A DNA stretch of 64,000 nt from an uncultured Planctomycetia bacterium (GCA_964421015.1 CAYQUS010000004.1:53744-117743), one strand, 5' to 3'; positions 30,713-56,294 are shown, numbered from the stretch's first letter. Made by a program: numbers and translations. Notes: generated by a model not told the origin, from the letters alone.

Positions 30713-30791
30713 TTTACCCTCTGTTTTTACTGTATAATTGCCGCGAGCACTTTATCAACTTTGCTTTTGCGGTCTTTCTGTTAATCAAAAC

Positions 30792-31988
30792 TTACTGCAA
30801 TATTTCCGCCACTACTCCGGCGCCTACCGTATGTCCGCCTTCTCTTATGGCGAACCTCAGTTCCTTCTCTATGGCTACCGGCGTTATAAGCTCAACTTCG
30901 ACCGTAACGTTGTCGCCCGGCATTACCATCTCCACTCCCTTAGCCAGCGTAACCACTCCGGTAACGTCCGTCGTCCTTATGTAGAACTGCGGCCTGTACC
31001 CGTTGAAGAAAGGCGTATGCCTTCCACCTTCTTCTTTGCTCAGTATGTACACCTCGGCCTTGAACTTGGTGTGCGGTGTTATAGACCCCGGAGCGGCAAG
31101 TACCTGTCCCCTCTCAAGATTGTTCTTGTCTATACCCCTCAAAAGCACTCCAACGTTGTCTCCGGCCTGACCCTCGTCAAGCAGCTTACGGAACATCTCT
31201 ATTCCCGTAACCGTGCTCTTCTTCGTGTCCCCAAGTCCCACTATCTCCACTTCTTCCCCGACCTTTACCTTACCTCTCTCTATCCTGCCCGTACCGACCG
31301 TTCCTCTTCCGGTTATGCTGAACACGTCCTCTATCGGCATAAGAAAAGGCTTGTCAACGTCTCTCACCGGCGTGGGTATGAAATTGTCGCAGGCGTCCAT
31401 AAGCTCGTCTATGAACTTGCAGTCCGGGCTATTGAGCGCTCCCTCCGCCTGAAGGGCCTTAAGCGCGCTGCCCTTGATTATCGGGGTCGTGTCGCCAGGA
31501 AAATTGTACTTCGTCAAAAGCTCTCTTATCTCAAGCTCAACAAGGTCAAGAAGCTCGGGATCGTCAACCATGTCCACCTTGTTCATGCATACCACTATCG
31601 CGGGCACGTTTACCTGCCTGGCCAGAAGTATGTGCTCTCTCGTCTGCGGCATCGGGCCGTCAGCCGCCGAAACTACAAGTATCGCCCCGTCCATCTGCGC
31701 CGCGCCCGTTATCATGTTCTTGATGTAGTCGGCGTGACCGGGACAGTCTATGTGCGCGTAATGCCTGGCGTTCGTCATGTACTCAACGTGCGCCACGGCT
31801 ATGGTAATTCCTCTTTCCTTTTCCTCGGGAGCCTTGTCTATGGTGTCAAAAGCCCTCTTCTCGGCCATGCCTTTATTCGCCAGGTACAACGTTATCGCGG
31901 ACGTAAGCGAAGTCTTGCCGTGGTCTACGTGACCTATCGTGCCTATGTTAAGATGCGGCTTTGTTCGTTCGAATTTTTCCTTGGCCAT
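30792..31988 (-). CDS. tuf: Elongation factor Tu, str-operon copy
   Basis: 398 aa; [17 protein letters not shown] motifs. The protein string is identical to the 46473..47669 copy. Confidence 0.95.
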
Positions 31989-32057
31989 GAGTCCTCCTAA
32001 AATTTTTTATCTGAAAATATATCCCTTTTTCAAGTGAACGTTACTCTATAATAACTA

Positions 32058-46056: not shown

Positions 46057-46132
46057 TGGCAGGAGAGACAGGCCTCGAACCTGCAACCCCCGGTTTTGGA
46101 GACCGGTGCTCTGCCAATTGAGCTACTCTCCT
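46057..46132 (-). tRNA. tRNA-Trp (anticodon CCA)
   Basis: Minus strand AGGAGAG-TA-GCTC...CTCCAAA...CTCTCCT-G-CCA folds as a cloverleaf. Lies between rpmG and secE. Confidence 0.85.
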
Positions 46133-46361: not shown

Positions 46362-46472
46362 TTTACCCTCGGTTTCTATCGCTCCGGCTGCTGTAATTCC
46401 GCCAGCCGTCTCTTCGCACTTTTCTCCAAAAACCCGTCAGGGACCACACCCCACAAGACCGGGCCCTGTTCC

Positions 46473-47669
46473 TTACTGCAATATTTCCGCCACTACTCCG
46501 GCGCCTACCGTATGTCCGCCTTCTCTTATGGCGAACCTCAGTTCCTTCTCTATGGCTACCGGCGTTATAAGCTCAACTTCGACCGTAACGTTGTCGCCCG
46601 GCATTACCATCTCCACTCCCTTAGCCAGCGTAACCACTCCGGTAACGTCCGTCGTCCTTATGTAGAACTGCGGCCTGTACCCGTTGAAGAAAGGCGTATG
46701 CCTTCCACCTTCTTCTTTGCTCAGTATGTACACCTCGGCCTTGAACTTGGTGTGCGGTGTTATAGACCCCGGAGCGGCAAGTACCTGTCCCCTCTCAAGA
46801 TTGTTCTTGTCTATACCCCTCAAAAGCACTCCAACGTTGTCTCCGGCCTGACCCTCGTCAAGCAGCTTACGGAACATCTCTATTCCCGTAACCGTGCTCT
46901 TCTTCGTGTCCCCAAGTCCCACTATCTCCACTTCTTCCCCGACCTTTACCTTACCTCTCTCTATCCTGCCCGTACCGACCGTTCCTCTTCCGGTTATGCT
47001 GAACACGTCCTCTATCGGCATAAGAAAAGGCTTGTCAACGTCTCTCACCGGCGTGGGTATGAAATTGTCGCAGGCGTCCATAAGCTCGTCTATGAACTTG
47101 CAGTCCGGGCTATTGAGCGCTCCCTCCGCCTGAAGGGCCTTAAGCGCGCTGCCCTTGATTATCGGGGTCGTGTCGCCAGGAAAATTGTACTTCGTCAAAA
47201 GCTCTCTTATCTCAAGCTCAACAAGGTCAAGAAGCTCGGGATCGTCAACCATGTCCACCTTGTTCATGCATACCACTATCGCGGGCACGTTTACCTGCCT
47301 GGCCAGAAGTATGTGCTCTCTCGTCTGCGGCATCGGGCCGTCAGCCGCCGAAACTACAAGTATCGCCCCGTCCATCTGCGCCGCGCCCGTTATCATGTTC
47401 TTGATGTAGTCGGCGTGACCGGGACAGTCTATGTGCGCGTAATGCCTGGCGTTCGTCATGTACTCAACGTGCGCCACGGCTATGGTAATTCCTCTTTCCT
47501 TTTCCTCGGGAGCCTTGTCTATGGTGTCAAAAGCCCTCTTCTCGGCCATGCCTTTATTCGCCAGGTACAACGTTATCGCGGACGTAAGCGAAGTCTTGCC
47601 GTGGTCTACGTGACCTATCGTGCCTATGTTAAGATGCGGCTTTGTTCGTTCGAATTTTTCCTTGGCCAT
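46473..47669 (-). CDS. tuf: Elongation factor Tu, second copy, in a tRNA-Thr-tuf-rpmG-tRNA-Trp-secE-nusG context
   Basis: The 398-aa protein string is identical to the 30792..31988 copy. Nucleotide identity runs from the stop codon to about 10 nt upstream of the ATG and then stops. Confidence 0.95.
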
Positions 47670-47779
47670 GAGTCCTCCTTCAGACTTGGTTTTTCCCGAC
47701 CGTGCCTCATCCGTGGCACCGGCATTTTTCAGCTATTTTTTCCCGCGCTCCGTTGCGTTTACGGCGCGCGCTAAATTCC

Positions 47780-47855
47780 TGGAGCCCTCGGCCGGAATTG
47801 AACCGGCGACCCCATCCTTACCATGGATGTGCTCTACCGGCTGAGCTACAAGGGC
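47780..47855 (-). tRNA. tRNA-Thr (anticodon GGT)
   Basis: Minus strand GCCCTTG-TA-GCTC-AGCCGGTA-GAGC...CATCC-ATGGTAA-GGATG...GCCGG-TTCAATT-CCGGC-CGAGGGC-T-CCA. 76 nt. Confidence 0.85.
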
Positions 47856-47983
47856 GCGCTTTTTCCACCGTTTCTTTTCCTCTATATCTTATCGGCTAAA
47901 GCTCAAAACCACACCATATGCTCGGCTTTAACGCCGGCACTGCATGTGCGGTATATGTATATTTTCGCCTAACCGAGATGTCG

Positions 47984-48011
47984 GAGTTAAGATTTTACCA
48001 AATAAGTCTTT
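47984..48011 (-). promoter_or_regulatory. Candidate sigma-70 promoter of the tRNA-Thr-tuf operon
   Basis: Minus strand: TTGACA (48011..48006), 16-nt spacer, TAAAAT (47989..47984). An AT-rich tract lies upstream. Confidence 0.45.
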
Positions 48012-48103
48012 TTTGTCAAGCCATATTTGCCATTTTTTTATTTTCTATTGTTTTTCACCCCGAACCGCCGCCACGGAAAGTTTTTTTTAGAAAATAACGG
48101 CAC

Positions 48104-48132
48104 TTTACTCCGAAGAGTTCATCGGATATACT
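48104..48132 (+). promoter_or_regulatory. Candidate promoter of the plus-strand small-protein operon
   Basis: TTTACT, 17-nt spacer, TATACT. It ends 8 nt before the ATG, so the transcript would be nearly leaderless. Confidence 0.3.
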
Positions 48133-48139
48133 TAATGCT

Positions 48140-48535
48140 ATGAAAAAACCGCCTTCTATGAGCTCTGCCTTAACAATGTGGACATTTTTCAGCCTCGGCA
48201 TACTTTCGTCGCTGGCCTTCCGTGTTCTCATAGTCTTCCACCACATCGATCCCGGAATGGTCCGCCCTGTGTGGTACGCCGGGGTCGCGGGCTATACTTT
48301 CTTTTTTTTCTACAGGTACGGCATATCGAAAAAACGTAAAAAAGCTGTTACGGATTTTGGCCTGCTTGAAAAAATATCCTCGGGGGAGTGCCTTTCGGGA
48401 GACGACAGAAAAGCCGCGGAGTATCTTTTTAGATCAATAACCAAGTCAAAAGAGGATATCAACTACCTTGTTATTTTTATTCTGTCGATAGTGGCAGTGG
48501 GCATAGACCTGGCCCTTAAAGCCGCGGGGAGATAG
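48140..48535 (+). CDS. Small integral membrane protein (3 predicted TM helices), unknown function
   Basis: 131 aa with hydrophobic segments at about 13-33, 43-60 and 108-128. First gene of a tightly spaced 4-gene plus-strand cluster. Confidence 0.55.
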   Translation: MKKPPSMSSALTMWTFFSLGILSSLAFRVLIVFHHIDPGMVRPVWYAGVAGYTFFFFYRYGISKKRKKAVTDFGLLEKISSGECLSGDDRKAAEYLFRSITKSKEDINYLVIFILSIVAVGIDLALKAAGR

Positions 48536-48538
48536 GCT

Positions 48539-49015
48539 ATGAGAAAACTGCCTGCCTTTGTCATATTAGCGCTGTGCCTGTCATCATGGGCCTATCCCGA
48601 AGCGGTTCACGCTCAACCTCTTTCGTCACGCCCCTCCGCTCCGGTCGTCGACCCCTCAGATCCGATGGATGCCGTACGGGAGAAGGTAGCCGACCAGATC
48701 TATCTTTATCGGGAGGTAATGCAGCACATATCTGATATCTCTGAAAGTTTCAGTTACGGGTACAATACCCCCGACGAAGCTCTCAAAAGGGTCCTTGTTC
48801 TGAGGCACGCCTACAACACCAAATCCGAGCCGCTTTGCCCCGAGATAAAGCGGTTCAATGACCTAATGAACCAGATGTTCTCGCGGCTCGAGAACTATTT
48901 CATCCATTTTAAGCAGATATACCGGGAGGATCCTTACCTGAACGCGAAACTTGCCGAGACAAAATTCTACACCGCCGAGGAAGCCGAAAGGCTTGAATAT
49001 ACTTACCTTAAATAG
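48539..49015 (+). CDS. Secreted protein of unknown function (signal peptide MRKLPAFVILALCLSSWAYPEAVHA)
   Basis: 158 aa. Starts 4 nt after the upstream gene. No recognisable motif. Confidence 0.5.
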   Translation: MRKLPAFVILALCLSSWAYPEAVHAQPLSSRPSAPVVDPSDPMDAVREKVADQIYLYREVMQHISDISESFSYGYNTPDEALKRVLVLRHAYNTKSEPLCPEIKRFNDLMNQMFSRLENYFIHFKQIYREDPYLNAKLAETKFYTAEEAERLEYTYLK

Positions 49016-49023
49016 GAGAAAAA

Positions 49024-49140
49024 ATGAAACTTTCATCGTCTCAGATAATTTCTTTGGCTGTCCTGGTGGCAATTACGATGATCGTGGTGTATATTCTTAG
49101 ACAGGAAATATCCGACATGCTTTTTCTCGGGGGGAAATAA
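49024..49140 (+). CDS. 38-aa single-TM peptide
   Basis: Hand-translated MKLSSSQIISLAVLVAITMIVVYILRQEISDMLFLGGK. Its stop overlaps the next start (TAACATG). Confidence 0.35.
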   Translation: MKLSSSQIISLAVLVAITMIVVYILRQEISDMLFLGGK

Positions 49141-49141
49141 C

Positions 49142-49465
49142 ATGACACTTGTATCGACCAAAACAAAATGCCGAATGATCGCAGCGGCAACTTTATCCTT
49201 TTCCCTATTCGCGTCCCCTTGTCCCGCCGACCCCATGGACAATCTTAGCAGAACAAGCATAGACCAGGCGACGCGTGAAGTCGACAAAGAGGTGATCCCG
49301 GAAAACTTTCAATGGGTGGTCCGCAAAAAGGCGGACATAAGAAAAGAAGACGGCCAGCTCATAGAGGATCCCGATAAAGACCTGGAAGGTTTTCCTCTCG
49401 AAGAAACCGCCGACGACTTCCCCCCATGCGCCCCGTGCTCCATCAAACCGCAAAAGAGCCGTTAA
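49142..49465 (+). CDS. Small secreted protein of unknown function (signal peptide; acidic; C-terminal PPCAPC)
   Basis: 107 aa. Last gene of the plus-strand cluster. Confidence 0.45.
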   Translation: MTLVSTKTKCRMIAAATLSFSLFASPCPADPMDNLSRTSIDQATREVDKEVIPENFQWVVRKKADIRKEDGQLIEDPDKDLEGFPLEETADDFPPCAPCSIKPQKSR

Positions 49466-49512
49466 CATTTACCGGCTACAAGCGGCGCGGATACTTTTTT
49501 TCAGCAAATCAA

Positions 49513-49541
49513 TTGACAAGAATTCAGAAAGAGTATATCAT
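49513..49541 (+). promoter_or_regulatory. Candidate promoter of tRNA-Gly
   Basis: TTGACA, 17-nt spacer, TATCAT. Located about 20 nt upstream of the tRNA 5' end. Confidence 0.45.
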
Positions 49542-49560
49542 TTTCCTTCGTGGCACAAGG

Positions 49561-49634
49561 GCGAGCGTAGCACAATGGTAGTGCAGAAGCCTTCCAAGCT
49601 TCCTACGTGGGTTCGATTCCCATCGCTCGCTCCA
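49561..49634 (+). tRNA. tRNA-Gly (anticodon TCC)
   Basis: GCGAGCG-TA-GCAC-AATGGTA-GTGC-A-GAAGC-CTTCCAA-GCTTC...GTGGG-TTCGATT-CCCAT-CGCTCGC-T-CCA. Confidence 0.85.
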
Positions 49635-49649
49635 TCTTTCCCGCGCTCC

Positions 49650-50108
49650 CTACTCCGCGTCTTGGCGATACTCAGATATAGGACTGCCTTCCGCTCCGGC
49701 ATAAAAAACAACTATTTCCGCCGGCTTATCGCCCTCGTTATAGCCGTAATGCCATGTATCTACCACCTCGACTATGGCCTCTCCTTCTTTTAGATGAAGA
49801 ATGTCCCCACGCTCGGTAACAACAGTAAGCTCTCCGCTCACCATGTATCCCGCGTTCATAACAGGATGCAAGTGCGTCGGAAGCTTTACCCCGGGAGGTA
49901 TTTTTATATCAAGAACGGTAATTTCGCTCTGCCCTTGAGGGTACCCTGGAAGAATGTTACCGTCCCATGAATTTGAAGTTTTAGCCAGTACTCGGGTTTC
50001 AATCGCCGTCTTTTCCGCTACCGCCTCTTCTCCACATGCCCCGGAATGTATCAAAAAAGCGAAACCCCATACAAATACACATCTTGCGATCTTCCTATAG
50101 GTTAACAC
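49650..50108 (-). CDS. Periplasmic cupin-domain protein
   Basis: Signal peptide, then a cupin_2 barrel with metal-site histidines (PTHLHP...H). Confidence 0.65.
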   Translation of the reverse strand: MLTYRKIARCVFVWGFAFLIHSGACGEEAVAEKTAIETRVLAKTSNSWDGNILPGYPQGQSEITVLDIKIPPGVKLPTHLHPVMNAGYMVSGELTVVTERGDILHLKEGEAIVEVVDTWHYGYNEGDKPAEIVVFYAGAEGSPISEYRQDAE

Positions 50109-50136
50109 TTATCCCCCTCTGCCCGGAAGTTATAAA

Positions 50137-50469
50137 CTATTTCTTATCGGTGCCCATAAGGGCTCCGCGTCTTTCCTCTCTCCTCTCTTGCCTTCTTTCT
50201 ATGCCGGCTTCTACTATGCCGGTGGCTTCCTTACCCACTTCTGATACGGCGGAAACAGCCGGTAGAGATGCTTTTTCGGAAGAAGCCGCGGTTTCCTGTA
50301 CAGCCGGGGTTTCTGTAACGATAGGGGCAGATCCCTCGGTAACAGCCGGAGCTTGAACGGAAACTTGCGTTTCATTGGCCTGCTGATCTACATTCTCTGG
50401 CTCTTCCGCGGCGAACGCCATACTGGAAACGAAAACTAATGCCATCACCATACTAATAATTTTTTTCAT
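50137..50469 (-). CDS. Small secreted low-complexity (Ala/Glu/Val/Thr-rich) protein with an Arg/Glu-rich C-terminus
   Basis: 110 aa; signal peptide MKKIISMVMALVFVSSMAFA. Confidence 0.45.
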   Translation of the reverse strand: MKKIISMVMALVFVSSMAFAAEEPENVDQQANETQVSVQAPAVTEGSAPIVTETPAVQETAASSEKASLPAVSAVSEVGKEATGIVEAGIERRQERREERRGALMGTDKK

Positions 50470-50730
50470 ACTGTCCCTCCTCCGGTCTGTTCTTCAGACT
50501 TTTTAATAAAGGTTTTCACCACCGGGGCGGTAAAAAAACATTCTCCCGGTGAACCATAAACCCGTTTATTATAACTCCGGGCTTCAAGATTGTAAACTTA
50601 ATGCCGTATCAACATATTACGTCTTTTTACGATACGCCCGGTCACCGGATCTGAGGAAATACGCTCTAAATTTTCCAGGGGTTACGCAAAGCCGAACATA
50701 AAAAAACTTCGCGGGCTTTCGCCTCGGCTT

Positions 50731-51522
50731 CTACTCCGCTATCTCGATGCAGTTAATAAGGAAGGTCCTGAGCTCCTGACGGAGATGACAGAAAGAATAA
50801 ACATAATCGCCTTTTATGCTCAGGGGGGTGATAGTCCTTTCCGTGATCTTTTCTTTCCACGAAGACCTGTACCTGATCTTTACGGGATCCTGTGTCTTTA
50901 TGGCTCGGTTCAATACCGTTAGCACATTCCCGCCGGCGGCAGCCGGGCCGGCCGTCTGCGTATAGGTCCTGGCTATATCCTCAACGTTCTCTATACCTCG
51001 TTCTTTCAGGACCTCTAAGGCCTTATTAAAAACTCTCCAGGTGGATATTACATCTGCCAGTGCCCTGTGCTGGAGTTCCGCCTTGATATCGAAATATGAA
51101 ACCACATTACCAAGACTATAACCGCCCGGAACGGTGAAACAGCTCCTTGCCAGCTCAAGAACGTCTATAACAAGATAATCGTTAAGTTCGGTCCTTTTAG
51201 GCCCCAGGGCCGCGGCCAGAAAACTTATGTCGAACCTGGCGTTATACGCTAGAAGAACTGAACCCCTTATGAATTCCATAAACCCGGGCAATACTTGGTC
51301 TATTACTGGCCTGCCTTTAAGCATGTCAGAAGATATCCTGTTCACTCTGTAAGCGCCTGGTGAAACGGGCCTTAAAGGGTCCACAAGCTCCTCAAAAACG
51401 CTCTCTTTACCGTCAGGCTCGCGGCGCATTGCCCCGATCTCGCATATAGCGTCACCTGAACCGGCAAAAAGCCCGGTAGTTTCAAAGTCGAAAACCGTAT
51501 ATGTAGCTTCACTTAAATTCAT
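50731..51522 (-). CDS. DnaQ-like (DEDDh) 3'-5' exonuclease fused to a C-terminal WYL-like domain
   Basis: Exo I motif FDFETTGL; Exo III H...D motif (QHRALADV). C-terminal about 70 aa is VKIRYRSSWKEKITERTITPLSIKGDYVYSFCHLRQELRTFLINCIEI, which matches the WYL-domain pattern. Confidence 0.7.
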   Translation of the reverse strand: MNLSEATYTVFDFETTGLFAGSGDAICEIGAMRREPDGKESVFEELVDPLRPVSPGAYRVNRISSDMLKGRPVIDQVLPGFMEFIRGSVLLAYNARFDISFLAAALGPKRTELNDYLVIDVLELARSCFTVPGGYSLGNVVSYFDIKAELQHRALADVISTWRVFNKALEVLKERGIENVEDIARTYTQTAGPAAAGGNVLTVLNRAIKTQDPVKIRYRSSWKEKITERTITPLSIKGDYVYSFCHLRQELRTFLINCIEIAE

Positions 51523-51579
51523 AGTGTTGTGTTCGGGGTATTGAGTATCGAGGATGCTCCTATCGGCCCCGGCGCCATT

Positions 51580-52386
51580 TTATCCCGATACTTTATAAGT
51601 GATACCCTCGCGACTTCCCTCTGCCGGGTATTTATTTATCTCCTCTTTGGCCGCGGCTATCCTTTCGTACAGATACGGATGGCTGCGGAGAAAATACACC
51701 CATTTCGCATCCCCTCCAAGCCGCTGTAATTTCTCGAGGAATGTAACTATGGCGTTCGGGTCATATCCCGCCTGATACATGTACTTTATGGAAAGCCTGT
51801 CAGCCGCGTATTCGTCCTGTCGCGAAAACCCGTTGGCCGCCAAAGTGTAAACAACGTTGGCCGCCTGCGAAAAATACTGCCATGCCTGGTCTTTTTTATC
51901 GGCGGGCCGCGTATCTAAAAGATATGCCAGGTTAAGGGCCATCTCGGCGCCGAGCCCTTTTTCCACCATTTTCATCACATGCCTTGCCTCATCATGGCCC
52001 ATCTCATGGGCTATAACCGCGGCAAGCTCGTCATCCGTAGCCGCGGCCAGAAGGCCCGTGGAAACCACTATGTAACCGCCTCCCGGAGTGAAGGCCTGTA
52101 TTTCCTTATCCTCGTAAACTATTATGTGTTTGTCGCGGATACGCGGAGAACCTATGGGAGAGGCCAGAGCGCGGGCCGTCTCAAGGGCCCGGGCATCCTT
52201 AACCAAGACTTTTCCCTGAAGTTTAGCTCTCAGGGTATTGATCGCGATGGAATCTTCCTGCTCTAGAGAAAGCCAGGCAGCCTCGTTTTTCTGAGTAGCA
52301 GGATTGTAATAGGTCGCGCAGCCCGAAAAGACCGCGCACATGAAAACCGCCAGAAAAAAATTTAAATACCTCAACGCCCTCATCAT
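51580..52386 (-). CDS. M48-family zinc metallopeptidase lipoprotein
   Basis: Lipobox FSGC; HEMGH zinc motif (AHEMGHDEARH). Confidence 0.75.
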   Translation of the reverse strand: MMRALRYLNFFLAVFMCAVFSGCATYYNPATQKNEAAWLSLEQEDSIAINTLRAKLQGKVLVKDARALETARALASPIGSPRIRDKHIIVYEDKEIQAFTPGGGYIVVSTGLLAAATDDELAAVIAHEMGHDEARHVMKMVEKGLGAEMALNLAYLLDTRPADKKDQAWQYFSQAANVVYTLAANGFSRQDEYAADRLSIKYMYQAGYDPNAIVTFLEKLQRLGGDAKWVYFLRSHPYLYERIAAAKEEINKYPAEGSREGITYKVSG

Positions 52387-52522
52387 AATTCACCATGCAT
52401 TCTCTGTCCGGGCTTTTTAAATCGCCGCGCTCATGCCCAACCTTTTCGTCTCAAAAAAATAAACGGTCCGGGGACGCCATACACCCGGGCCCCGGACCGT
52501 TCTACACACGAATAATTCCGGA

Positions 52523-53191
52523 TCAGAACGACCAGTTAGCAAGGACCATGAATTCCATAGGATCCTTGTTGCCGTTATAGTTACCCAGGCCTATTTGAAG
52601 GCCGTTCAGGTTGTTGGTGTAATTCACAAGCCCGAGCTGAAATCCCTTCATTTCGGCGGCGTAATTTACAAGCCCTCCCTGAAAACCCTTAAAAGTACCG
52701 TCGTTGAAATTTACGACGCCAAGCTGGGCGCCTACGGATTCTCCTTTGGAAACGTTAAGAACACCGCACTGCCCCCCGTGCAGAGTCCCTTCCGTCCAGT
52801 TCACAAGACCCCACTGTATGCCTGTGGTGTCACCGCCTACAATATTAGCCATGCCGTACTGAAGCCCCACAAAGCGCTGTTTAACGTAGTTTACCATTCC
52901 TATCTCTATACCGTAAGCGGATCCCTCAACCCAGTTACCAAGACCGAACTCTACTCCGCTCATGTCGCCGGTGGTCCTGTTGACACCGAACCACACAAGG
53001 CTTAGACCCGTAACGTCCTTGTTGACGGTGTAAAAAACGCTGAGCCTAAGCCCCTTTATTGACTGGTCCTCAGGCACGGTCTGTACAGGGTTGAAAAGCG
53101 CGAGCTGTAAAGGCTGTGCCTCCGTGGCAAAAGCCGTCCTGGCCATTGCCGAGATCAAAATAACTGCCGCCACAAAAAATTTTTTCATCAT
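52523..53191 (-). CDS. Secreted outer-membrane-type repeat protein: about ten tandem 15-residue repeats (consensus h-Q-x-G-h-V-N-aromatic-x-x-G-x-x-x-G) and a C-terminal Phe
   Basis: Signal peptide, then repeats such as IEIGMVNYVKQRFVG / LQYGMANIVGGDTTG / IQWGLVNWTEGTLHG / FQGGLVNYAAEMKG / FQLGLVNYTNNLNG. The protein ends ...LANWSF. Confidence 0.6.
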   Translation of the reverse strand: MMKKFFVAAVILISAMARTAFATEAQPLQLALFNPVQTVPEDQSIKGLRLSVFYTVNKDVTGLSLVWFGVNRTTGDMSGVEFGLGNWVEGSAYGIEIGMVNYVKQRFVGLQYGMANIVGGDTTGIQWGLVNWTEGTLHGGQCGVLNVSKGESVGAQLGVVNFNDGTFKGFQGGLVNYAAEMKGFQLGLVNYTNNLNGLQIGLGNYNGNKDPMEFMVLANWSF

Positions 53192-53297
53192 GTTTTTCTC
53201 TCCTCCTTTTAACCCCCGGTTTTATATTTTCCGATTTCCCTATTCAGATTCTACGCCTTAGGGAACATATTTTCAAACTTTATCTTTTTGAACGTCT

Positions 53298-53720
53298 CTA
53301 TTCCCCGATCACTTTTATCAAAACCCTTTTACGGCGCTGTCCGTCGAACTCTCCGTAAAATATCTGTTCCCACGGCCCCAGATCAAGTCTGCCGTTCGTG
53401 ACCGCTACCACCACTTCTCTTCCCATAACGGTCCTTTTAAGATGAGCGTCGGCGTTGTCCTCTCCGGTGAGGTTATGTTTATATTTGTCCACTCCGTAGG
53501 GCGCGAGTTTTTCAAGCCACACCAGAAAATCCTGATGCAGTCCGGACTCATTATCGTTGATAAAAACAGAACTTGTTATGTGCATGGAGTTAACAAGACA
53601 CATCCCTTCCTTAGCCCCGCACTTTTTTACGGCTGCCTCCACCTGTGGCGTTATATTAATAATGTCGTACCTTTTTTCGGTGTTTAACCATAGATAATCC
53701 GTATGAACTTTCATCGCCAT
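53298..53720 (-). CDS. YjbQ-family (UPF0047) secondary thiamine-phosphate synthase-like protein
   Basis: 140 aa matching the YjbQ fold motifs (DITP...[13 protein letters not shown]...HLKRTVMG). Confidence 0.7.
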
Positions 53721-53827
53721 TCCTTTTTCTTTTTACCGGCCTTGAGTTTGAACGCCAGGCTCTCTTTTTTCTCTCTCTGAAGGCGCGATATGTCTTTCTG
53801 GCGCCGGGTTATTGTGTGTTTAGTCAT
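53711..53827 (-). CDS. Possible 38-aa highly basic peptide overlapping the yjbQ start (speculative)
   Basis: Hand-translated [43 protein letters not shown] sits 8 nt upstream. Its TGA overlaps the yjbQ ATGGCGATGA start region. Confidence 0.2.
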
Positions 53828-53838
53828 TCGCTCGCTCC

Positions 53839-54045
53839 TCACTTTAAAGGTTCAGGATCTTTGCACGCGGCCCAGACCAAAGCCGCCACCCATCCTATAA
53901 AAGTCCAGCCAAGGAGCAGGTTCAGTATAAAAATAGCCCCGGCATTACGTTTTCTTCGGCCGACTATGGCGGGCAGAAAATAAAAGAACAGGCTGAATAT
54001 GACCGCTAACGCGATGATAAGTACCGCGATCGTTCCTTCTTGCAT
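53839..54045 (-). CDS. Imm-type superinfection immunity family small membrane protein
   Basis: 68 aa; LPAIVGRRKRNAGAIFILNLLLGWTFIGWVAALVWAA matches the conserved core of the T4 Imm-like (PF14373-type) family. Confidence 0.6.
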   Translation of the reverse strand: MQEGTIAVLIIALAVIFSLFFYFLPAIVGRRKRNAGAIFILNLLLGWTFIGWVAALVWAACKDPEPLK

Positions 54046-54242
54046 GTAAGCCTCCTTAAGTCAGGTTTTAACACACCCCAACTCTAATTATAAGTGGCAC
54101 GGTTTTGGGGGGAAGGTCCCCATCACAACCCTTAGGTCACGTTTTTGTAAACACTTGCATTATAGACTTTATCGACAAGGTTTTCAACAGCTTGGTGGCC
54201 AATTTACAGGGTAGATTTGGCCGACCGTGGGCATATAAGAAC

Positions 54243-54276
54243 AAAACCCAGGATCTCTCTGAGATCCTGGGTTTTG
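54243..54276 (-). terminator. Intrinsic terminator, potentially bidirectional, downstream of tRNA-Tyr
   Basis: AAAA-CCCAGGATCTC-tct-GAGATCCTGGG-TTTT: a perfect 11-bp stem with an A tract and a T tract on either side. Confidence 0.7.
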
Positions 54277-54404
54277 GCCTCGGTTATTATTTGTCTTGGT
54301 GTCCCTTGGAGCCGGGGTCGGCTCCAAGGATCCCCCATCTTTCCGGGAATCTCACAAAAACTTTCCGCCCAAGGTAAGGAAAGTTTTTGTGTATAGGTTA
54401 AGCT

Positions 54405-54489
54405 GGTGGGGAGGGAAGGATTCGAACCTTCGAAGGCGTAAGCCGGCAGATTTACAGTCTGATGCGTTTGGCCACTTCGCTACCTCCCC
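54405..54489 (-). tRNA. tRNA-Tyr (anticodon GTA), class II with a long variable arm
   Basis: Minus strand GGGGAGG-TA-GCG...CTGTAAA...long variable arm...GAAGG-TTCGAAT-CCTTC-CCTCCCC-A-CCA. 85 nt. Confidence 0.85.
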
Positions 54490-54750
54490 GAACGAGGTGT
54501 ATTCTATGTTATAGAGCGCTTTTTGTCAAATAGCCTAAACTTTGACCTGTGATTGCTACTTGCATATTACTGTTTTTTTAGATCCTTCGGTCGCTTCGCT
54601 CCCTCAGGATGACGAACTTTAGGCTCAGGAAAACACCTTGGTGACAGGCACCTTTGTATCACAACATAGACCAGACAAAGTTGCCAGTCACCAGTCGCGG
54701 CAAAGTTGCCAAACACCTTTGAAAACACATTGGTGCCAGGCACCAATTGC

Positions 54751-54799
54751 TTCCTCCTTCCTCCTTCCTCCTTACTCCTTACTCCTTACTACTTTCTAC
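54751..54799. repeat. Seven tandem degenerate heptamers (TTCCTCC x3, TTACTCC x2, TTACTAC, TTTCTAC) in the tRNA-Thr/tRNA-Tyr spacer
   Basis: Direct reading of the plus strand. On the transcribed (minus) strand it is a purine tract (GGAGGAA)3(GGAGTAA)2.... Confidence 0.8.
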
Positions 54800-54808
54800 T
54801 TAAAGACA

Positions 54809-54884
54809 TGGAGCCGGCGGAGGGATTTGAACCCCCGACAGGCTGATTACAAATCAGCTACTCTACCAACTGAGTTACGCCGGC
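54809..54884 (-). tRNA. tRNA-Thr (anticodon TGT)
   Basis: Minus strand GCCGGCG-TA-ACTC-AGTTGGTA-GAGT-A-GCTGA-TTTGTAA-TCAGC-CTGTC-GGGGG-TTCAAAT-CCCTC-CGCCGGC-T-CCA. Confidence 0.85.
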
Positions 54885-54918
54885 ATTCTATCGTTTTAAA
54901 GAGCATCGACCCGTAAAA

Positions 54919-54945
54919 GATATACTAAATGATGCGTAAAGTCAA
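54919..54945 (-). promoter_or_regulatory. Candidate promoter of the tRNA-Thr(TGT)-tRNA-Tyr transcription unit
   Basis: Minus strand: TTGACT, 15-nt spacer, TATATC. About 35 nt upstream of the tRNA 5' end. Confidence 0.3.
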
Positions 54946-55051
54946 GTAGCACGGGAACAGAACCGGGATTGGGATTTTTTTGCTGTTAAGTTCACCACAT
55001 TGGTGAAAGGCACCGGCGGTTCCAGTCACCGGAACCAGAGCCTCTTTGCCT

Positions 55052-55915
55052 CTAAAGCCCGGCTTTGGCGAACGCCTCGTTGAGCGAATCCAGAACATCA
55101 GAAGCTATCATGCTGAAAATACCTTTTTTCTGCGCAGCTATGTCGCCGGCAAGGCCGTGAAGATAAACCCCGGAAACGGCCGCGCTGTAAGCATTGAGCC
55201 CCTGCCCTATAAAAGAAGCTATTATCCCGGTAAGCACGTCGCCTGTACCTCCCGTTGCCATGCCGGAGTTCCCGGTATCGTTAACGAAAGTCTCTCCTTC
55301 GGGAGAAACTACAACGGTCCCGTGCCCTTTAAGGCACACTACCGCTCCCGTAATGTCGGCAAGACGTTTGGCCGAACCCACCCTTTCCTTCTGCACATCG
55401 GATGTTTTTTTTCCAAGTAAACGAGCGGCCTCGCCCGGATGCGGTGTTATGACCGTAGCGGCTTTCCTGCCCTTTATGGTTTCAGCCTCGCCTTCCATAA
55501 CGTTAAGTCCGTCGGCGTCAAGCACCACCGGAACACCAAGTTTACGCAAAAGCGCTCTTACCAGTTTATGCACATCTTGACTTTGCCCCAGACCGGGCCC
55601 CATCGCCACGACATCGCATTTTTCCGACGCCTCAAGTATTTCCTTTTCCGCTTTCTTCGAAAAAGCCGACCCATCGGCTCCGGCGGCCACGGGCAGGGTC
55701 ATTACTTCAGTAAGTTTGGTTTCCATTACGCCGTTTAGCGTCTCCGGGACGGCGCATGTCACAAGGCCGCTTCCCGCTCTTAAAGCGCCCATCGCCGTAA
55801 GACAGGCCGCGCCAGTCATGCCTCTTGACCCGGCGACCACAAGAACTTTTCCGTAATCCCCTTTATGAGAATCTTCCTTCCTGGAACTTATCTTGCCCAT
55901 GTGTGTTTTAAACAT
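55052..55915 (-). CDS. nnr: ADP-dependent (S)-NAD(P)H-hydrate dehydratase (YjeF C-terminal domain family)
   Basis: 287 aa; KGDYGKVLVVAGS...GMTGAA...GTGDVL motifs of the carbohydrate-kinase-like YjeF_C fold. Confidence 0.75.
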   Translation of the reverse strand: MFKTHMGKISSRKEDSHKGDYGKVLVVAGSRGMTGAACLTAMGALRAGSGLVTCAVPETLNGVMETKLTEVMTLPVAAGADGSAFSKKAEKEILEASEKCDVVAMGPGLGQSQDVHKLVRALLRKLGVPVVLDADGLNVMEGEAETIKGRKAATVITPHPGEAARLLGKKTSDVQKERVGSAKRLADITGAVVCLKGHGTVVVSPEGETFVNDTGNSGMATGGTGDVLTGIIASFIGQGLNAYSAAVSGVYLHGLAGDIAAQKKGIFSMIASDVLDSLNEAFAKAGL

Positions 55916-56294
55916 CTTTCACCGCCAATGCGTTTGATGTAGCTATGTTTTCTGTGTGTGATACGCTCACAAGAACGCGCGTCAGGTCGAACTCCCGCAT
56001 TATCTGCCCGGCTCGCCCGTGAAGCTCAACATAGGGTTTGCCATCGGGATGGTTCAAAACCTCTATGTCGGACCAGTTGAGGCCTATCCTCGCGCCGTCA
56101 GGAAGAGCCTTCTTGACGGCTTCTTTGGCGGCGAACTTGCCGGCCATGTGCTCGTAAAAAAATTTTTTGCTGGAAGCGTGTTCAAGCTCTTTTTCGGTAA
56201 AGATCTTGCGGAGAAAATCTTTTCCTCTTTTTTCCACGACTTTCCGGAACCTTTTTATGTCAACTATGTCCGTCCCCAGACCGAAGACCCTCAC
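55908..56294 (-). CDS. acpS: Holo-[acyl-carrier-protein] synthase
   Basis: 128 aa; GTDIVDIKRF and SVSHTENIA motifs. Confidence 0.8.
   Translation of the reverse strand: MRVFGLGTDIVDIKRFRKVVEKRGKDFLRKIFTEKELEHASSKKFFYEHMAGKFAAKEAVKKALPDGARIGLNWSDIEVLNHPDGKPYVELHGRAGQIMREFDLTRVLVSVSHTENIATSNALAVKDV

Follow-up and report, generated by a model that had tools for sequence, protein, structure and literature searches.

A dispersed tRNA-Thr/Tyr/Gly/Thr-tuf cluster with an inverted tRNA-Gly module in an Omnitrophota genome

We analyzed a stretch of 64,000 nucleotides (the window) from an Omnitrophota metagenome-assembled genome (MAG). tRNA calling with ARAGORN and Rfam showed that tRNA-Thr(TGT), tRNA-Tyr, tRNA-Gly(TCC), tRNA-Thr(GGT), and tuf have the same order and anticodons as in the Escherichia coli thrU-tyrU-glyT-thrT-tufB-secE-nusG region. 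The four tRNA genes, which are normally grouped ahead of tuf, are here dispersed across 7 kb, with 319 bp between tRNA-Thr(TGT) and tRNA-Tyr, 4,769 bp (about 4.8 kb) between tRNA-Tyr and tRNA-Gly, and 1,705 bp (about 1.7 kb) between tRNA-Gly and tRNA-Thr(GGT). The tRNA calls and the E. coli comparison bear out a preliminary description of this locus, according to which all five cluster members are present, the cluster is split, and tRNA-Gly is inverted (Table 1). The tufB-like copy, which has 85 to 90% identity to the EF-Tu of relatives, is followed by rpmG, tRNA-Trp, secE, and nusG. It is 100% identical over 1,208 nt (blastn and tblastn) to the tufA-like copy, whose neighbors are fusA and rpsJ. 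To the right, nnr closes a folP-cdaA-ybbR-pdxJ-acpS-nnr run.

Table 1. Features of the tRNA-tuf locus, in window coordinates
Feature	Position	Strand	Evidence
Second tuf copy, tufA-like, after fusA	30792-31988	-	blastn, tblastn
tRNA-Trp	46057-46132	-	ARAGORN, Rfam
tuf, tufB-like copy, downstream of tRNA-Thr(GGT)	46473-47669	-	398-aa ORF
tRNA-Thr(GGT)	47780-47855	-	ARAGORN, Rfam
Promoter-like site TTGACA-16-TAAAAT with TG, for tRNA-Thr(GGT)-tuf	47992-48019	-	consensus match
Inverted module (operon and tRNA-Gly), ~1.6 kb	48045-49649		orientation versus relatives
sp131, small membrane protein, first operon gene	48140-48535	+	orthologs in L072 (71%), L073 (60%)
sp158, secreted four-helix-bundle protein, most conserved operon gene	48539-49015	+	homologs
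sp38, single-pass membrane peptide	49024-49140	+	orthologs L073_38, L070_37
sp107, final gene ahead of tRNA-Gly in all lineages	49142-49465	+	orthologs in L072, L073, L074, L075
Promoter-like site TTGACA-17-TATCAT, dedicated to tRNA-Gly	49513-49541	+	consensus match
tRNA-Gly(TCC), opposite strand to other tRNAs and tuf	49561-49634	+	ARAGORN, Rfam
Cupin_2 protein	49650-50108	-	Pfam; absent from relatives' intervals
p110, 110-aa secreted protein, no family match (Pfam, NCBIfam)	50137-50469	-	ORF
DEDDh (DnaQ-like) exonuclease with WYL domain	50731-51522	-	Pfam, NCBIfam, PADLOC
M48 peptidase	51580-52386	-	Pfam
LA_2272-repeat/VC2662-family surface protein	52523-53191	-	NCBIfam
YjbQ/UPF0047	53298-53720	-	Pfam, NCBIfam
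Imm_superinfect small membrane protein	53839-54045	-	Pfam
Two stacked terminator-like hairpins downstream of tRNA-Tyr	54242-54276, 54353-54391		at limit of conserved sequence
tRNA-Tyr(GTA)	54404-54489	-	ARAGORN, Rfam
Promoter-like site of tRNA-Tyr	54501-54529	-	consensus match
tRNA-Thr(TGT)	54809-54884	-	ARAGORN, Rfam
NAD(P)H-hydrate dehydratase (Nnr), conserved right-hand anchor	55052-55915	-	homologs with same neighbors

Promoters and terminators were called as consensus matches only. Promoter-like sites lie ahead of tRNA-Tyr, tRNA-Gly, and tRNA-Thr(GGT), each with a score of 11/12. The site of tRNA-Thr(GGT) falls within sequence conserved with L072 (window 47535-48044, 77% identity), and in 8 of 10 lineages tRNA-Gly is preceded by a TTGACA...TATATCAT/TATATTAT box. 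Hairpins had been noted at the right junction, and both are predicted to be terminator-like, the one farther from tRNA-Tyr having perfect 16-bp arms. Terminator-like hairpins follow tRNA-Gly in relatives, and none was found after tRNA-Gly in the window.

Immediately upstream of tRNA-Gly are four small plus-strand ORFs (48140-49465), sp131-sp158-sp38-sp107. Homologs of sp158 are 51 to 69% identical in five other lineages (L070 and L072 to L075), and the family alignment has 36 invariant columns. The AF2 model of sp158 (pLDDT 82) has no match in the PDB, and sp158 accounts for 34 clusters among 1.84e9 proteins. No match to sp131 was found in Pfam or NCBIfam. Of the six lineages compared, the window included, between three and six have an ortholog of each of sp131, sp38, and sp107, and the 81-aa protein of L070 is tied to sp107 through other orthologs, with no direct match. 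The operon-tRNA-Gly module is thus present in six lineages, and in the five others it lies between tRNA-Tyr and tRNA-Gly. The preliminary description had counted the four genes as lineage-variable cargo, which does not agree with orthologs beside tRNA-Gly in five other lineages. The operon is a conserved chromosomal module tied to tRNA-Gly.

The orientation of this module varies. In L070, L073, L074, and L075, the operon and tRNA-Gly run in the direction of nnr and tuf, and they are reversed in the window and in L072, which is collinear with the window: tuf(-), tRNA-Thr(GGT)(-), operon(+), tRNA-Gly(+), and M48(-). The housekeeping sequence of L072 consists of 45 EF-Tu residues only, and its distance to the window was judged from the module genes and M48. 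Coding-strand GC skew is -0.12 for sp158 and -0.13 for sp107 in the window and -0.07 and -0.19, respectively, in L072. The orthologs in non-inverted relatives have values of +0.05 to +0.31, relative to which the sign of the inverted genes is flipped, and all neighboring genes have values of +0.07 to +0.33. The GC skew of the inverted module is already re-equilibrated, and the inversion is therefore old. The flanking promoter and gene ends would place the breakpoints within 48020-48103 and 49635-49649; a repeat scan found no inverted repeats of at least 14 nt bracketing the module. The preliminary description had suggested an inversion centered on tRNA-Gly. The orientation in the four non-inverted relatives supports an inversion involving this gene, but tRNA-Gly forms one end of the inverted segment rather than its midpoint.

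The seven genes between tRNA-Gly and tRNA-Tyr include the families already named in the preliminary description (cupin, RNase_T and WYL exonuclease, peptidase M48, LA_2272-repeat/VC2662 family, YjbQ, and Imm_superinfect), which hold in Pfam and NCBIfam. M48 is 74% identical to its counterpart in L072 and 72% to that in L062, similar to the flanking housekeeping genes Nnr and PdxJ, for which identities of 70 to 74% were found with L067 and L069, the nearest relatives. The M48/DnaQ-WYL adjacency is common to the window and L062 only; the contig of L062 carries no tRNA, and its shared M48 neighborhood suggests that it belongs to the same locus. DnaQ-WYL matches CRISPR-associated and PDC-S48 models in PADLOC, and its homologs occur in three unrelated contexts in relatives, including an island with an integrase and IS66. 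None of the relatives examined carries the cupin, p110, DnaQ-WYL, LA_2272-repeat, YjbQ, or Imm gene in the corresponding interval, and, apart from DnaQ-WYL, none of these genes turned up in any relative. The earlier view that the intervening genes are lineage-variable therefore holds for these six, but not for the conserved operon or for M48. Cargo content varies gene by gene among the lineages compared, none of which has both flanks and comes from the same species or genus, and the seven genes are a mosaic in a gap with lineage-specific content.

The split of the cluster is found throughout the relatives. tRNA-Tyr and tRNA-Gly are 2.0 to 9.6 kb apart in every Omnitrophota locus with readable flanks: in addition to the gap in the window, we found 2,026 bp in L075, 2,039 bp in L074, 3,384 bp in L073, 3,782 bp in L070, and 9,600 bp in L071/L015, two contigs joined through a 7,564-nt overlap of 100% identity. 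The gene content of this gap is different in each lineage. nnr followed by tRNA-Thr(TGT) and tRNA-Tyr is a conserved flank in L067 to L071 and L073 to L075, and tRNA-Gly followed by tRNA-Thr(GGT)-tuf is conserved in L015, L022, and L033. The clade has kept the order nnr, tRNA-Thr(TGT), tRNA-Tyr ... tRNA-Gly ... tRNA-Thr(GGT), tuf, rpmG, tRNA-Trp, secE, nusG, with the tRNAs as separate units and genes in between. Because tRNA-Tyr and tRNA-Gly are apart in all readable loci, and with other content, the single insertion of about 6.3 kb put forward in the preliminary description is not borne out, and the split is old and lineage-wide rather than specific to this genome. This reconstruction rests on about 10 informative loci, none of them same-genus with both flanks, and nearly all contigs of relatives end in the duplicated tuf or just past tRNA-Tyr.

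The dispersed arrangement might instead be the original state of the phylum, a loose ancestral linkage, with the real events limited to the inversion and the turnover of cargo. Four contiguous tRNAs were found at none of the Omnitrophota loci examined, and the occurrence of the operon-tRNA-Gly module in six lineages fits this possibility as well. However, the anticodon set and order, continued by tuf-(rpmG-tRNA-Trp)-secE-nusG, match E. coli, tRNA-Thr(TGT)-Tyr-Thr(GGT) are contiguous in Patescibacteria loci, and the tufB operon with its four tRNA genes has been placed in an ancient conserved supercluster (PMC6735719). We therefore consider an originally dispersed state unlikely. E. coli, the partial Patescibacteria clusters, and the published supercluster suggest that the four tRNAs were contiguous in the ancestor of the phylum.

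Quite unlikely, in our view, is that the block between the tRNAs represents a single integrative island or prophage remnant, old and decayed, that entered at a tRNA gene and whose integrase has since disappeared. This had been the main reading in the preliminary description, which spoke of an old or decayed insertion. tRNA genes are present on both flanks, Imm_superinfect and the DEDDh-WYL exonuclease with its PADLOC matches look like mobile cargo, and similarity to all relatives ends exactly at the tRNA-Tyr 3' end. On another Omnitrophota contig, a tyrosine integrase and an IS66 transposase share an island with a DnaQ-WYL homolog of 66% identity, and in L067/L068 a stretch of 28 nt duplicates the 3' end of tRNA-Thr(TGT), so integrative elements have used the cluster. 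Against this, an integrase or transposase domain was not found in any block protein with Pfam or NCBIfam, as the preliminary description had stated, and the gaps between block ORFs, at most about 260 bp, offer no room for a remnant. A fuzzy search of the whole window, run with the last 16 and 24 nt and the first 20 nt of each of the five tRNAs and tolerating as many as 4 mismatches per 24 nt, returned no tRNA-fragment repeats, and a repeat scan returned no direct repeats at the block boundaries. The composition of the block is native, with a GC content of 0.46 to 0.52 versus 0.45 to 0.54 elsewhere in the window, and with GC3 and tetranucleotide distance inside the range of the window (|z| < 1.7 for intervals within the block). 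The only interval with z > 2, 51001-56000, overlaps repeat-rich tRNA spacers. No phage or plasmid similarity was found for the block except at tRNA-Gly. Moreover, the block is not one unit, as the operon and tRNA-Gly are a conserved module and M48 occurs in relatives with otherwise different neighbors. Two signs to which the preliminary description had pointed thus came out negative: composition is not island-like, and direct repeats matching tRNA 3' ends are missing from the boundaries. As for synteny, all relatives carry the split with other content, five other lineages share the operon, and the nearest relatives share M48.

An assembly or binning artifact, such as a metagenome contig wrongly joined through tRNA genes or through the duplicated tuf, is very hard to credit although the window comes from a MAG with two identical 1,208-nt tuf copies and most related assemblies end exactly in tuf or after tRNA-Tyr, because the layout is reproduced both by an independent Logan assembly from a different sequencing run (L001, spanning 54608 to 49370 at 99.6% identity and reaching from tRNA-Tyr across all cargo and the inverted tRNA-Gly into sp107) and by L072, from a different species and sample, with the same tuf/tRNA-Thr(GGT)/operon/tRNA-Gly/M48 order and orientations, and the reversed GC skew is a biological signature not expected from a mis-join.

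The locus is thus probably the outcome of an old lineage-wide loosening, an inversion that is small and likewise old, and a gradual turnover of genes, rather than a recent integrase-mediated island. An ancient tRNA-Thr/Tyr/Gly/Thr-tuf (tufB-type) operon would have loosened long ago in the Omnitrophota and been remodeled later. The orientations point to a flip in place, as the presumed mechanism, of the 1.6-kb segment with the operon and tRNA-Gly in an ancestor common to this genome and L072; the module now points away from tRNA-Thr(GGT)-tuf. The content observed directly 3' of tRNA-Tyr suggests that this gap is a permissive slot with piecemeal gain and loss. In this genome it holds seven genes, each apparently with its own promoter; M48 would come from an ancestor that also gave rise to L072 and L062, the M48/DnaQ-WYL adjacency recurs in L062 alone, and the remaining cargo is apparently unique. 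Dispersal may have been tolerated because each tRNA, as well as tRNA-Thr(GGT)-tuf, seems to have its own near-consensus promoter, with terminator-like hairpins after tRNA-Tyr here and, in relatives but not in the window, after tRNA-Gly, so that broken contiguity or a flipped tRNA-Gly need not stop expression. On this reading the locus exemplifies ordinary genome rearrangement of an already known kind.

Like the tufB-type operon, the window has a tuf copy preceded by tRNA genes with these four anticodons in an identical order, continues downstream with secE-nusG-rplKAJL-rpoBC-rpsLG-fusA-tuf-rpsJ, and keeps its second tuf copy identical, as in tufA/tufB. Unlike that operon, the cluster is non-contiguous, has tRNA-Gly on the other strand and a promoter-like site for each unit, and carries rpmG and tRNA-Trp between tuf and secE. 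From the predicted layout, it cannot be one transcript. In complete Omnitrophota genomes, variable loci overlapping EF-Tu and ribosomal genes were reported in 150 of 223 (bioRxiv 10.64898/2026.06.07.730766); these calls rest on read soft-clipping within populations, and the tRNA cluster is not described there. Our window belongs to the same phylum, and three related assemblies break at most 300 bp past tRNA-Tyr. Identical tuf copies may be an alternative source of hypervariable-region signals near EF-Tu. With tRNA-associated genomic islands, the locus shares variable content starting exactly at a tRNA 3' end and a relative with an att-like duplicate in the cluster, but the window has no integrase, att repeat, or compositional deviation, and its content is a mosaic, not one unit. 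Erosion of the supercluster has been described as the lineage-specific insertion of small sets of ordinary non-mobility genes, with further rearrangement in some lineages (PMC6735719). Here, too, a few non-mobile genes lie lineage-specifically inside a conserved translation-gene cluster. In contrast to those insertions, which are between operons, the present ones are within a tufB-type operon, between tRNA genes; the gaps are common to a whole clade of another phylum, and one of them holds a conserved lineage-specific operon.

The genes around tuf in the window follow, on the minus strand, the order tRNA-Thr(TGT), tRNA-Tyr, a gap of 4,769 bp, tRNA-Gly (inverted), a gap of 1,705 bp, tRNA-Thr(GGT), tuf, rpmG, tRNA-Trp, secE, and nusG, and beyond nusG come rplKAJL, rpoBC, rpsLG, fusA, a second tuf, and rpsJ. 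tRNA genes were called by ARAGORN, and all five were confirmed by Rfam, which found nothing but tRNAs in the window; sub-threshold matches to sX4 and snR76 were dismissed. The preliminary description had the coordinates and this layout right, as well as the four plus-strand small genes (encoding 131, 158, 38, and 107 aa and here called sp131, sp158, sp38, and sp107), two hairpins, and the protein families in the larger gap (Cupin_2, an RNase_T and WYL exonuclease [DnaQ-WYL], peptidase M48, an LA_2272-repeat/VC2662-family protein, YjbQ, and Imm_superinfect). It took positions 48060-54404 to be a block of lineage-variable genes that splits an ancestral tRNA-Thr/Tyr/Gly/Thr-tuf cluster, and suggested an old or decayed insertion or else an inversion centered on tRNA-Gly. 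The split and the inverted tRNA-Gly are real, while only part of that interpretation is supported: the tRNA-tuf cluster eroded long ago and throughout the clade, a conserved operon is attached to tRNA-Gly, an ancient inversion of ~1.6 kb also occurs in at least one further species, and genes turn over slowly in a 4.7-kb slot directly 3' of tRNA-Tyr.

Coordinates of features in the window and in contigs of other assemblies (L numbers)
Feature	Sequence	Position	Strand
tuf copies, identical region	window	30791-31998; 46472-47679	
tRNA-Trp	window	46057-46132	-
tuf	window	46473-47669	-
tRNA-Thr(GGT)	window	47780-47855	-
Promoter-like site, tRNA-Thr(GGT)	window	48019-47992	
18-nt inverted match	window	48074-48091; 54350-54367	
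Small-protein operon	window	48140-49465	+
Promoter-like site, tRNA-Gly	window	49513-49541	
tRNA-Gly(TCC)	window	49561-49634	+
tRNA-Gly to cupin stop codon	window	49635-49649	
Seven cargo genes	window	49650-54045	
16-bp hairpin	window	54242-54276	
Second hairpin	window	54353-54391	
tRNA-Tyr	window	54404-54489	-
Promoter-like site, tRNA-Tyr	window	54529-54501	
CACNTTGGTGNCAGGCACC copies	window	54634-55014	
CT-rich tandem repeat	window	54750-54802	
tRNA-Thr(TGT)	window	54809-54884	-
nnr	window	55052-55915	-
tRNA-Thr(TGT) 3'-end duplicate	L067	9231-9260	
Giant gene	L070	15370-20861+	
Giant gene	L073	12566-19111	
Giant gene	L074	7185-14570	
Giant gene	L075	8575-12576	
Palindromic element	L072	1982-2221	
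Palindromic element	L067	2530-2768	
Palindromic element	L068	1688-1926	
Inverted contig ends	L062	4-58; 7954-8007	

An independent Logan assembly (L001) spans positions 54608-49370 of the window at 99.6% identity, so the joins between tRNA-Tyr, the cargo, the inverted tRNA-Gly, and sp107 are reproduced. The NusG protein and its counterparts in Candidatus Omnitrophota MAGs share 90-92% identity, and a 137.6-kb NCBI contig of an Omnitrophota MAG carries identical proteins. The two tuf copies lie in direct orientation 14.5 kb apart and are 100% identical over 1,208 nt (the coding sequence with 10 nt upstream and 1 nt downstream), which, judged from the sequence, implies ongoing gene conversion. 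Because the copies are identical, some 30 contigs of related Omnitrophota MAGs have their start within tuf or beside it, and for this reason a NusG-anchored genome scan with 51 loci revealed the upstream side only in L015, L022, L025, L033, and L036. The ends of contig L062 are 55-nt inverted copies (93% identical), probably an assembly artefact.

We compared the locus in relatives using the conserved right-hand anchor Nnr (NAD(P)H-hydrate dehydratase), whose homologues are 62-74% identical and lie within the same folP-cdaA-ybbR-pdxJ-acpS-nnr run. In eight relatives (L067, L068, L069, L070, L071, L073, L074, and L075), nnr is followed by tRNA-Thr(TGT) and tRNA-Tyr, and in all eight the 3' end of tRNA-Tyr is the exact limit of nucleotide similarity to the window; the assemblies of L067, L068, and L069 stop <300 bp past it. 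On the tuf side, tRNA-Gly (plus strand) lies upstream of tRNA-Thr(GGT)-tuf by 486 (L015), 316 (L022), and 222 bp (L033), with no tRNA-Tyr found within 2.0 to 7.8 kb upstream, and L036 has an inverted tRNA-Gly 339 bp from tRNA-Thr(GGT). A stretch of 7,564 identical bases joins L071 to L015, which sets the distance from nnr-Thr-Tyr to Gly-Thr-tuf in that genome at 9,600 bp. This gap encodes a 1345-aa HAD protein, a Fic/RHH pair, PilZ, DUF6941, a response regulator, and STAS, and contains none of the block genes of the window.

Other relatives carry homologues of the small-protein genes. L073 reads nnr, tRNA-Thr(TGT), tRNA-Tyr, a radical-SAM/SPASM gene, sp131 and sp158 homologues, genes for 38, 98, 157, and 89 aa, tRNA-Gly, a 2181-aa gene, tRNA-Thr(GGT), and tuf, all on one strand. 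L070, L074, and L075 have tRNA-Tyr, (ZIP), an sp158 homologue, more small genes, tRNA-Gly, and a giant gene. L072 runs from tuf and tRNA-Thr(GGT), both on the minus strand, through plus-strand genes for 131, 157, and 98 aa to a plus-strand tRNA-Gly, past which a 252-aa gene, M48, a 149-aa gene, a response regulator, HisKA, and a 1190-aa gene lie on the minus strand. The single giant gene (1,333 to >2,461 aa) that fills the tRNA-Gly/tRNA-Thr(GGT) gap in four relatives is absent from the window and L072; those of L073, L074, and L075 share 25-52% identity over aligned segments and have almost no Pfam matches.

All-against-all BLASTP of the operon genes gave four orthologue groups: sp158 in all six lineages (the window, L070, L072, L073, L074, and L075), sp107 in the same six and in every case the last gene before tRNA-Gly, sp131 in the window, L072, and L073, and sp38 in the window, L070, and L073. 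The sp158 homologues are 51-69% identical, are found on the same contigs as Nnr, and align with 36 invariant columns; at 50% identity they belong to just 34 clusters among 1.84 billion representatives, a small family. The operon is predicted to encode a membrane protein, a secreted four-helix bundle (sp158, a signal peptide plus bundle, pLDDT 82), a 38-aa membrane peptide, and a secreted 107-aa protein. The operon has no family assignment or structural match, and the PDB fold search with the sp158 model returned a generic four-helix bundle without a significant match (best E value, 0.16). Since the orthologues stay beside tRNA-Gly in six lineages, the operon is a conserved but lineage-specific chromosomal module and not the lineage-variable cargo for which it had been taken.

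Among contigs long enough to read, that of L072 has the sp158 homologue nearest to the window's (69% identity). Its DNA is collinear with that of the window, so the inverted operon plus tRNA-Gly is common to both. The module is co-oriented with its neighbors in L070, L073, L074, and L075, and tRNA-Gly is also co-oriented in Escherichia coli, L015, L022, and L033. An inversion involving tRNA-Gly thus did take place, as an old event in a ~1.6-kb segment of operon plus tRNA-Gly, with tRNA-Gly at one end of the segment and not at its center. Its age follows from coding-strand GC skew, which has changed sign: sp158 and sp107 have -0.12 and -0.13 in the window and -0.07 and -0.19 in L072, against +0.05 to +0.31 for the same orthologues in non-inverted relatives and +0.07 to +0.33 for all neighboring genes in the window and relatives. 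A repeat scan of the window found no inverted repeats bracketing the segment. In-place inversion of about 48045-49649 would give the layout, provided that the operon and tRNA-Tyr were already separated by the cargo; L071/L015 offers a precedent for other genes between tRNA-Tyr and tRNA-Gly. Inversion of operon, tRNA-Gly, and cargo in one piece was rejected, as it would put the cargo opposite tuf and the cargo is actually on the tuf strand. A common origin with the inverted tRNA-Gly of L036 is unlikely: in an unrooted tree of two proteins, L022 and L015, with co-oriented tRNA-Gly, are closer to L036 and the window than those two are to each other, and L036, unlike the window, has no operon between tRNA-Gly and tRNA-Thr(GGT). 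The L036 inversion was probably a separate event, as far as gene order and this tree indicate.

A palindromic element of ~165 to 240 nt with ~21-nt terminal inverted repeats (ATACAAGGGTCTGGCATTCCC...) looks MITE-like in sequence. It lies between the sp107 homologue and tRNA-Gly in L072 and, 87% identical, in the unrelated tilS-ftsH spacer of L067 and L068; it is absent from the window.

Variability of the block was borne out for the cupin, p110, LA_2272-repeat protein, YjbQ, and Imm genes, none of which was found by tBLASTn in any relative's interval. M48 is common to the window, L072 (74%), and L062 (72%), the 149/150-aa gene upstream of it to L062 and L072 (56% identity), and the DnaQ-WYL gene downstream of it to L062 and the window (71%). 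Other DnaQ-WYL homologues (63-66% identity) have different surroundings, one adjoining a WYL regulator, DUF2130, a tyrosine integrase, and IS66 and another AddAB and HIRAN genes; a metagenome scan returned only 28-37% identical exonucleases, with no synteny information. The cargo appears to be a mosaic, with single genes added around an inherited M48. Promoter-like sites precede imm, the repeat protein gene, and p110, which fits separate transcription units. The tRNA-Gly 3' end is 15 nt from the convergent cupin stop codon, with no terminator-like hairpin between them in the window (most relatives have one after tRNA-Gly), so that transcription could run on, antisense, into the cupin gene.

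The slot, bounded by a lineage-specific secreted/membrane small-protein operon welded to tRNA-Gly and conceivably coupled to it in function, could instead be a clade-wide, integrase-independent hotspot of gene exchange 3' of tRNA-Tyr (elsewhere in the Gly-Thr(GGT) gap). The cargo differs in every lineage examined and in some includes giant genes of 1,300 to 2,500 aa, toxin-antitoxin pairs, and WYL-type nucleases, and assemblies of three populations break close to the tRNA-Tyr 3' end. We nevertheless consider this improbable. A 2026 preprint (bioRxiv 10.64898/2026.06.07.730766) reports that hypervariable loci overlap EF-Tu and ribosomal genes in many complete Omnitrophota genomes; if a hotspot, the locus would be a defined example of these.

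A genomic island splitting the operon is contradicted by negative integrase, att, composition, and phage/plasmid tests and by a split that is clade-wide. Domain searches found no integrase or transposase among the block proteins, the att-repeat search no partial tRNA copies anywhere in the window, and neither direct repeats nor tRNA 3'-end repeats occur at the block ends. The block is native in composition (GC content of 0.46 to 0.52 versus 0.45 to 0.54 elsewhere in the window), with GC3 and tetranucleotide distance inside the window's own range. Its sole match in phage and plasmid DNA was tRNA-Gly, and PADLOC identified no defence system: all that the exonuclease matched were generic DEDDh, WYL, and PDC-S48 models. 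An 18-nt inverted match at the block ends is AT-rich, overlaps the tRNA-Tyr terminator hairpin, and was treated as chance. L067 and L068 carry, 166 bp downstream of tRNA-Thr(TGT), a 28-nt duplicate of its 3' end plus 4 nt beyond; this att-like scar suggests past use of the cluster by an integrative element in that lineage. Around tRNA-Thr(TGT) of the window, the motif CACNTTGGTGNCAGGCACC occurs in 3 to 4 copies, on both sides and nowhere else (chance expectation, 0.08), one of them forming a perfect palindrome, and the tRNA is closely followed by a tandem repeat (7.6 copies) of a 7-nt CT-rich unit.

Immediately before tRNA-Tyr, tRNA-Gly, and tRNA-Thr(GGT) there are sites that agree with the sigma-70 consensus in 11 of its 12 positions, and tRNA-Thr(TGT) is preceded by a 9/12 site. 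The tRNA-Gly box (TTGACA, 17 nt, TATATCAT or TATATTAT) is kept in 8 of 10 lineages in either tRNA orientation, and tRNA-Tyr is followed by strong hairpins. The tRNAs thus seem to be units in their own right, which would make the gaps and the inversion tolerable.

The main value of these results is a correction: the apparent island reflects operon erosion, the ancient inversion of a short segment, and genes that turn over slowly, and the locus should not carry a mobile-element annotation. They also lend modest support to the view that an ancient translation-gene supercluster can open where each piece has its own promoter. In Omnitrophota, MAG contigs break systematically at the identical tuf duplicates and the tRNA-Tyr boundary, the tRNA-Tyr/tRNA-Gly gap is a useful variable marker locus, and tRNA-Gly is accompanied in the clade by a conserved, uncharacterised four-gene secreted/membrane operon.

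In E. coli K-12, thrU-tyrU-glyT-thrT-tufB-secE-nusG are contiguous within 1.4 kb, whereas the cluster of the window is interrupted, and the tufB operon is a single transcript, whereas the tRNAs here appear autonomous. The locus adds one more case to a known kind of event and is of limited general interest. What comes nearest to it is the account by Brandis, Cao and Hughes (PMC6735719), from which it differs in that the gaps lie inside a tufB-type operon, are common to a clade of another phylum, and in one case hold a conserved lineage-specific operon.
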